Source: Escherichia coli
Lineage (GTDB): Bacteria > Pseudomonadota > Gammaproteobacteria > Enterobacterales > Enterobacteriaceae
DNA: 64,000 bases
Assembly (NCBI RefSeq): GCF_041248615.1
Contig: NZ_CP158426.1
Strand: one strand, 5' to 3'
The translations under genes were made by a program, and so were the position numbers. How positions within the stretch are numbered: position 1 is the first letter of the stretch; each line of letters begins with the position of its first letter. Shown piece by piece: positions 18,648 through 19,302 of the stretch. The notes under the pieces were generated by a model. The model had not been told where the DNA came from and made no database searches. It saw only the letters and a program-made list of their open reading frames with translations.

Positions 18648-18914
18648 ATGGACATTAACAACAAAGCCCGCATTCATTGGGCATGCCGCCGTGGTATGCG
18701 CGAACTCGATATTTCAATCATGCCGTTTTTCGAACATGAGTACGACAGCTTAAGCGATGACGAAAAACGCATCTTTATTCGTCTGCTGGAATGTGACGAT
18801 CCGGACCTGTTTAACTGGCTGATGAATCACGGTAAACCGGCCGATGCAGAACTGGAAATGATGGTCCGACTCATCCAGACACGGAACCGGGAACGTGGTC
18901 CTGTGGCAATCTGA
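18648..18914 (+). CDS. sdhE: FAD assembly factor SdhE (CptB antitoxin)
   Basis: 88-aa [24 protein letters not shown]... Confidence 0.93.
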
Positions 18915-19302
18915 TTTGCGCGTCTCCTGGCGCGCACAGTGGCTTTCCTTGCTGATTCATGGGCTGGTTGCCGCTGTTATTTTACTCATGCCCTGGCCAC
19001 TCAGTTACACCCCGTTATGGATGGTGTTACTTTCGCTGGTGGTGTTTGATTGCGTTCGCAGCCAGCGGCGTATTAATGCTCGCCAGGGGGAAATTAGCTT
19101 GTTGATGGACGGGCGTTTGCGTTGGCAAGGGCAGGAGTGGAGCATCGTCAAAGCACCGTGGATGATTAAGAGCGGCATGATGCTGCGTTTACGTTCTGAT
19201 GGCGGTAAACGGCAACATTTATGGCTGGCAGCCGACAGCATGGACGAAGCTGAATGGCGGGATTTACGGCGGATTTTGTTGCAACAAGAGACGCAAAGAT
19301 AA
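18895..19302 (+). CDS. ygfX: inner membrane protein YgfX (CptA toxin)
   Basis: 135-aa GTG-initiated ORF, overlaps the sdhE 3' end by 20 nt. Confidence 0.88.

Follow-up and report, generated by a model that had tools for sequence, protein, structure and literature searches.

The overlapping sdhE-ygfX (cptB-cptA) gene pair of Escherichia coli: a core operon with a conserved 20-nt overlap and a contested toxin-antitoxin function

The sdhE-ygfX locus of Escherichia coli, its 20-nt gene overlap and the two rival functional labels attached to it are already known from the literature and from RefSeq. Under the first label, the locus was published as CptB/CptA, a type IV toxin-antitoxin (TA) system (Masuda et al. 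2012, cited here through PMC8621075 and PMC3985639). As that work is summarised in PMC8621075, the overproduction of YgfX in E. coli leads to growth arrest and lemon-shaped cells, YgfX binds FtsZ and MreB, and the co-expression of YgfY, the product of the upstream gene, counteracts the effect. A CptBA-like pair of Acinetobacter has also been reported as a TA system (PMC8132199). In Serratia, according to the account given in PMC3985639, the TA phenotype was not found despite the interaction of SdhE with YgfX. In Shewanella, YgfX was not toxic, YgfY gave no rescue, and the binding to FtsZ and MreB was not seen (PMC8621075).

Under the second label, the upstream gene encodes a factor that acts in flavinylation. 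SdhE is presented in PMC5042078 as a conserved protein of the alpha-, beta- and gammaproteobacteria and of eukaryotes, and a role of its RGxxE motif in flavinylation has been described (PMC8621075). The co-transcription of sdhE and ygfX has been reported in both Serratia and Shewanella; for Serratia, PMC5042078 describes the two genes as one operon of which the membrane protein interacts with SdhE.

We analysed a stretch of 64,000 nt of E. coli DNA, which is referred to below as the window. The sdhE gene (ygfY/cptB) occupies positions 18648-18914 on the plus strand, starts with ATG, stops with TGA and encodes 88 amino acids. The ygfX gene (cptA) occupies positions 18895-19302 on the same strand, starts with GTG, stops with TAA and encodes 135 amino acids. 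Both genes were read from the list of open reading frames and from the raw sequence. The initial annotation had described an 88-aa SdhE gene that overlaps a GTG-started 135-aa YgfX gene by 20 nt, and this description was exact to the base. RefSeq agrees with it: in strain C of E. coli both CDS are annotated at identical relative coordinates, the sequence of 18400-19400 is a 100% match, and the product names are "FAD assembly factor SdhE" and "protein YgfX". Over the 1 kb around the pair, BL21(DE3) and other laboratory strains are also 100% identical. The allele here reads "EISLL" at residue 68, as against "EIRLL" in the close relatives that were read.

The SdhE sequence matched the Pfam family Sdh5 (PF03937; 5e-26, 90.8 bits against a cut-off of 27), and it matched the NCBIfam SdhE equivalog NF008130 over residues 1-88 of 88 with 198.4 bits against a cut-off of 120. 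The translated reading frame contains the RGxxE motif as R15-G16-M17-R18-E19, and the protein is acidic (pI 5.3). A search of the PDB gave matches to 1x6i, 6c12 and 6b58 with E values of 1e-51 to 1e-59, and the chains of 6c12 (E 4e-58) and 6b58 (E 2e-51) carry the name "FAD assembly factor SdhE". That is, the protein encoded here is essentially identical to the E. coli protein that was crystallised alone (1x6i), with SdhA (6c12) and with FrdA (6b58). The papers that belong to these structures describe, by their titles, an SdhA-SdhE complex and an assembly intermediate of complex II. Judged from its sequence identity, the product of the upstream gene is the FAD assembly factor for SdhA and FrdA, the function of which was shown by others. 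A relationship of SdhE to YbjN was also considered and rejected, as the Pfam match reached only 20.1 bits and stayed under the cut-off of 22.

The two genes share the stretch 18895-18914, GTGGTCCTGTGGCAATCTGA, and ygfX is read in the +1 frame with respect to sdhE. These 20 nt encode the C-terminus of SdhE, GPVAI followed by the stop codon, and at the same time the N-terminus of YgfX, M/V-V-L-W-Q-S. The overlap is 20 nt long and identical in sequence in Escherichia, Salmonella, Klebsiella and Enterobacter. In the alignment of these four genera, the mean column identity was 79%, and the longest invariant run measured 26 nt (18890-18915, columns 331-356 of the alignment) and spanned the overlap; it is also the longest such run in the operon alignment. 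Where genes on one strand overlap elsewhere in the corresponding 50 kb of strain C, the annotation gives them a shared length of just 1-4 nt.

We then extended the comparison to distant relatives. Seven loci encoding full-length homologues of YgfX with 22-44% identity were picked from a HMMER scan, and their genomic context was looked up. In these loci, the lengths of the overlap were 20, 20, 20, 20, 14, 19 and 20 nt. Taking all loci together, the overlap was 14-20 nt long in 11 of the 12 compared. The distant loci differ in the letters of the overlap, in whether the start codon is ATG or GTG, and in the stop codon; one of them, the locus with the 19-nt overlap (L011), also differs in the relative frame. 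Since all of these have changed, it is the arrangement itself that is maintained, and not the sequence alone. The conserved overlap is thus more than a matter of chance.

The overlap is nevertheless not obligatory, as two exceptions show. In Proteus mirabilis, sdhE and ygfX lie 307 nt apart (L005, 1694-2000) without any overlap, and in Shewanella oneidensis the two genes are separated by a gap of 37 bp (PMC8621075). The SdhE of Proteus is longer (93 aa) and has a different C-terminus.

The reality of the overlap depends on the start codon of ygfX, and another start was considered. An in-frame TTG at 18916, which is codon 8 of ygfX and lies one base past the stop codon of sdhE, would abolish the overlap if translation really began there. 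However, the GTG at 18895 is the earliest start that follows the upstream in-frame stop at 18859, and there is no purine-rich tract before the TTG. In the alignment, the N-terminal pattern M-V-x-W...S is kept across 20 homologues of YgfX, down to 22% identity, and the YgfX of Proteus keeps V-T-L-W-K-S although it is free of the dual-coding constraint. In addition, the Pfam profile match of YgfX starts at residue 2, and residues 2-8 were modelled as a beta-strand with a pLDDT of 94. Because of the conserved N-terminus, including that of Proteus, and the confidently modelled strand, we rejected the start at TTG 18916 and regard it as very improbable.

We also weighed the idea that ribosomes shift by +1 in a programmed manner within the overlap and so make an SdhE-YgfX fusion protein. 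Fused reading frames of 166-217 aa with both Pfam domains are indeed present in the protein collection. When six of these fusions were examined (P0002, P0003, P0005, P0008, P0013 and P0021), each was represented by only 1-2 member sequences and a single contig, and the junctions differed among the six, some of them lying far upstream of the overlap. Nor was any slippery or stimulatory motif evident in the overlap. The fusions come from metagenome and read-archive assemblies, and some of them contain out-of-frame stretches. The rarity of the members and the differing junctions led us to reject the frameshift, which seems scarcely credible for this operon; indel errors or sporadic frameshift mutations are the simplest explanation of the fused frames. 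The classical programmed +1 frameshift site of prfB is found elsewhere in the window (23497-23515, plus strand, CTTAGGGGGTATCTTTGAC). It is identical to that of strain C, the annotation of which splits the prfB CDS into two pieces and adds the remark "programmed frameshift".

How, then, might ygfX be translated? Upstream of its GTG we found only a weak GGA/GGGA, and in the relatives, too, ygfX is preceded by a poor Shine-Dalgarno sequence throughout. With such a poor ribosome-binding site, and with its GTG located 20 nt before the end of sdhE, ygfX would be translated mostly by ribosomes that are finishing sdhE. Such coupling, which we infer from the deeply conserved overlap, would tie the output of YgfX to that of SdhE. 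When the RNA of the junction (18855-18945) was folded, the weak GGA and a portion of the GTG were paired within a small hairpin, the stability of which did not exceed that of shuffled sequences (z = -0.82). As the hairpin lacks statistical support, we propose coupling solely because of the conservation of the overlap.

It may also be supposed that the overlap is an evolutionary leftover without a regulatory role, and that ribosomes start on ygfX independently, at a weak site of its own, the overlap persisting because indels there harm both frames. Dual coding alone would yield the 26-nt invariant run, Proteus and Shewanella do without the overlap, and no significant RNA structure was seen at the junction; these points agree with such a leftover. 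A frozen relic is, however, difficult to reconcile with an overlap that is kept at 14-20 nt despite changes of sequence, start, stop and even frame (the 19-nt overlap of L011), which suggests that it was re-made or selected. The uniformly poor Shine-Dalgarno sequences before ygfX also speak against independent translation. We therefore consider the leftover explanation unlikely and prefer translational coupling.

As for other expression signals, ygfZ (17425-18405, minus strand), which profile matches and RefSeq identify as a folate-dependent Fe-S cluster/tRNA-modification protein, is the divergent neighbour of sdhE. The intergenic region between them (18406-18647) presumably bears the promoters. 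A consensus promoter scan of 18300-19450 gave no promoter-like site, and TACAAT at 18606-18611 is the sole obvious -10-like hexamer in the intergenic region. The sequence AGGAAG at 18639-18644, before the ATG of sdhE, may serve as its Shine-Dalgarno-like signal, as read from the sequence. The RNA fold of the sdhE leader was unremarkable.

On the other side of the pair, fldB (flavodoxin 2; 19342-19863, minus strand, by profile matches and RefSeq) is the convergent downstream neighbour. The stop codons of ygfX (19302) and fldB (19342) face each other, and in the gap RNA folding revealed a GC-rich hairpin at 19306-19335 (-18.3 kcal/mol, z = -3.75), which is likely a terminator. It has a T-rich tail on the fldB strand only, and on the plus strand it was not called by the terminator scan. 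Since the T-rich tail serves only the fldB strand, it is not obvious that the sdhE-ygfX transcript ends by intrinsic termination. Two "terminators" that the scan did call within 18300-19450 lie inside ygfX and are at chance level; they were discarded.

We next consider the product of the downstream gene. YgfX matched the Pfam family Cpta_toxin (PF07254) with 4e-50 and 169.8 bits against a cut-off of 27.3, residues 2-131 being aligned to positions 1-132 of the 133 of the profile. No NCBIfam model was matched, and a sequence search of the PDB found no solved relative of YgfX even at E <= 1. YgfX is a basic protein (pI 10.7) free of low-complexity segments, and its hydropathy peaks at residues 14-34 and 36-54. 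An AlphaFold2 model, for which an alignment of 20 sequences was used as the input, had a mean pLDDT of 94.1 and a pTM of 0.75. In order, its elements are a strand (residues 2-8), two helices (12-31 and 36-62), six strands (between 65 and 112) and a last helix (118-134).

The initial annotation had called YgfX a membrane protein, and the two hydrophobic segments together with the two modelled transmembrane helices (about residues 12-31 and 36-62) agree with this. By hydropathy and by the model, YgfX has the layout of the Cpta_toxin family, that is, two N-terminal transmembrane helices and a C-terminal soluble domain. According to the model, YgfX would be a two-helix hairpin of the inner membrane with both the N-terminus and the C-terminus inside. 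The N-terminal strand and the C-terminal 70 residues are predicted to form a cytoplasmic PH-like domain, and this domain may function as a protein-binding module at the inner face of the membrane.

The family of YgfX is narrow. When 1.84 billion cluster representatives were scanned exhaustively with HMMER, only 136 clusters at 50% identity were obtained. As SdhE is widely conserved and YgfX is not, SdhE has a job that is independent of YgfX. In the same protein collection, a protein of 2608 aa (P0224) matched YgfX residues 31-78, the region of the second transmembrane helix, in 20 stretches with an E value of 6.6e-7. This is probably a hydrophobic protein of repetitive make-up and not a relative.

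The distribution of the locus was examined next. The sdhE-ygfX pair is a core chromosomal bicistronic operon of E. coli: 5425 of the 5426 complete genomes of this species contain it, and the median number of places in a genome is 1. Plasmids and phages gave few homologues of YgfX, 12 among 72,556 records for the former and 2 among 50,697 for the latter. When four of the plasmid records were inspected, three of them had the chromosomal neighbours ygfZ, fldB, xerD and dsbC. One of these three, a 51-kb "plasmid" of Enterobacter hormaechei (L004, NZ_CP114989.1), carries bglA, ygfZ, sdhE, fldB, xerD, dsbC, recJ, prfB and lysS. In the fourth record, which is from Proteus and 4.08 Mb long, the locus is without annotation. 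Several PLSDB "plasmid" records (NZ_OL790696.1, CP125156.1 and others) are chromosomes of 4-5 Mb, and others are fragments that bear core genes of the chromosome; such records seem to be mislabelled or misassembled. We therefore did not take the plasmid and phage matches as a sign of mobility, and read them as mislabelled chromosomes or chromosome fragments. The PADLOC defence models gave no match to SdhE or YgfX at E <= 0.01.

The order of genes in E. coli, taken from the RefSeq annotation of strain C, is ygfZ (divergent), sdhE-ygfX, fldB (convergent), xerD, dsbC and recJ. The neighbourhood of ygfZ and usually fldB, xerD, dsbC and recJ holds even at 22-35% identity of YgfX. In each of the seven distant loci, ygfX lies directly 3' of a co-oriented gene, which encodes an Sdh5 protein in six of them; in the seventh (L007), the upstream gene is cut by the end of the contig. 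Over the whole comparison, the order with sdhE first was found in the window and in 11 of 11 other loci, the upstream gene being Sdh5/SdhE-like in 10 of the 11 (all except L007) and overlapping ygfX in 10. A gene with a YgfZ_barrel domain was divergent upstream in all six distant loci with upstream context, and a flavodoxin gene followed downstream, as in E. coli, in four of the five with downstream sequence. A locus on a Logan contig (L010, SRR32665172, GC 37%) has a 14-nt overlap and other genes downstream (queG-like, dtd and BrkB-like). This difference indicates that the trio of ygfZ, sdhE and ygfX is more conserved than the part with fldB, xerD, dsbC and recJ. From these comparisons, the sdhE-ygfX pair behaves as a vertically inherited housekeeping pair and not as an addiction module.

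These results bear on the question of whether sdhE-ygfX truly works as a TA system of type IV, in which the CptA toxin would block the polymerisation of FtsZ and MreB from the membrane, SdhE/YgfY would counter it, and the overlap would keep the antitoxin ahead of the toxin. The statement of the initial annotation that the pair matches the reported CptB/CptA toxin-antitoxin-like module is borne out by the Pfam and NCBIfam matches and by the identity of the locus with the one published for E. coli, and its hedged wording was fair to the literature. Besides the reports on the E. coli locus (Masuda et al. 2012, known here through PMC8621075) and on the Acinetobacter homologue (PMC8132199), the title of the Pfam family, "Membrane-bound toxin component of toxin-antitoxin system", agrees with such a function. 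So does the layout of two small, adjacent, co-oriented and overlapping genes in one operon, the upstream protein being acidic and the downstream protein basic.

However, the TA phenotype was not reproduced in Serratia and Shewanella, and the function of SdhE is established, structurally solved and unrelated to the cytoskeleton. The patchy, mobile or multi-copy distribution that usually marks TA systems, without being part of their strict definition, was not seen for sdhE-ygfX, which is core, single-copy, essentially absent from genuine plasmids and phages, and kept in housekeeping synteny in distant lineages. RefSeq, too, now uses the plain product name for YgfX. Taken together, the TA function of sdhE-ygfX is contested, and the genomic evidence points to a housekeeping operon; a genuine TA system seems to us distinctly improbable. 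Some caution is appropriate here, because the Pfam name "Cpta_toxin" and the TA catalogues spread a TA label that is unsupported by comparative genomics and by the experiments in two organisms.

We consider it quite probable that sdhE-ygfX is a housekeeping operon with coupled translation and that the toxicity of YgfX is an effect of overexpression. In such an operon, YgfX in the inner membrane would bind SdhE through its PH-like domain and act as a membrane-bound partner, in accordance with the interaction reported in Serratia. The growth arrest and the lemon-shaped cells would then be the overexpression phenotype of a housekeeping membrane protein, and not the function of an addiction or stress TA module.

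A more specific role may be suggested, though only tentatively, and we are more inclined to doubt it than to rely on it. YgfX might be a membrane-tethered PH-like adaptor, the synthesis of which is locked to that of SdhE and which recruits or holds SdhE at the inner membrane. The flavinylation of SdhA and FrdA would thereby be coordinated with the assembly of complex II on its anchor, and the toxicity would be a side effect of membrane overload. If this were true, ygfZ (Fe-S cluster maturation), which is always divergent, and fldB (flavodoxin), which is often adjacent, would make the region a conserved "redox-cofactor maturation" neighbourhood. What the present analysis adds to the known locus is the deep conservation of the overlap, the poor support that the genomic context gives to a TA function, and a confident model that suggests a PH-like domain in YgfX. 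The conserved overlap of 14-20 nt and the PH-like model offer handles on the role of YgfX for SdhE.

Several other features were recognised in the window. The 6S RNA gene (ssrS) lies at 3673-3856 on the minus strand and was matched at full length by Rfam with 139.8 bits. In strain C it sits 119 nt earlier (L013, 3554-3737), and this shift implies an indel of about 119 nt with respect to strain C somewhere upstream of 3673; the part with ygfZ, ygfX and lysS is in register. A tRNA-Gly gene (anticodon CCC) was found at 60659-60732 on the plus strand by both Rfam and ARAGORN. Unlike the disputed cptBA, a further locus in the window is a TA system of type I (IbsC/Sib): a SIB RNA was matched at 2874-3024 on the minus strand, with 133.8 bits in Rfam. 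The matching region of strain C carries ibsC, annotated as "type I toxin-antitoxin system toxin IbsC".

Finally, we compare the locus with the known systems. The modelled soluble domain of YgfX has structural matches among the eukaryotic PH and Ran-binding domains. This is a likeness of fold only, as YgfX had no sequence match to the Pfam PH-type families even at E <= 10. Moreover, one strand of the modelled PH-like fold is supplied by the extreme N-terminus, ahead of the membrane hairpin.

In comparison with CbtA/CbeA (YeeV/YeeU), the defining type IV TA system of E. coli, sdhE-ygfX likewise consists of two small adjacent genes, and the toxin CbtA has also been reported to act on FtsZ and MreB (PMC8621075). 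There is no sequence relationship between the two systems. Whereas systems of the CbtA type have homologues in cryptic prophages of K-12, going by the title of Wen et al. (YkfI and YpjF are given as homologues of CbtA in PMC8621075), sdhE-ygfX is core, single-copy and non-mobile.

With the complex II flavinylation factors SdhE, Sdh5 and SDHAF2, the SdhE encoded here shares the same profiles, the RGxxE motif and the near-identity to the chains that were crystallised in complex with SdhA or FrdA, and for SdhE itself no difference was found. The difference lies in the YgfX partner, which is confined to a narrow set of relatives.

The closest counterpart is the pair sdhE (ygfY, b2897)-ygfX (b2896) of E. 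coli K-12, alias cptB-cptA. The locus is one and the same: the genes have equal lengths, ygfX starts with GTG, the overlap measures 20 nt, and the neighbours ygfZ, fldB, xerD, dsbC and recJ are shared as well. The two show no difference of substance, and the allele in the window is of the B/C type found in BL21 and strain C.
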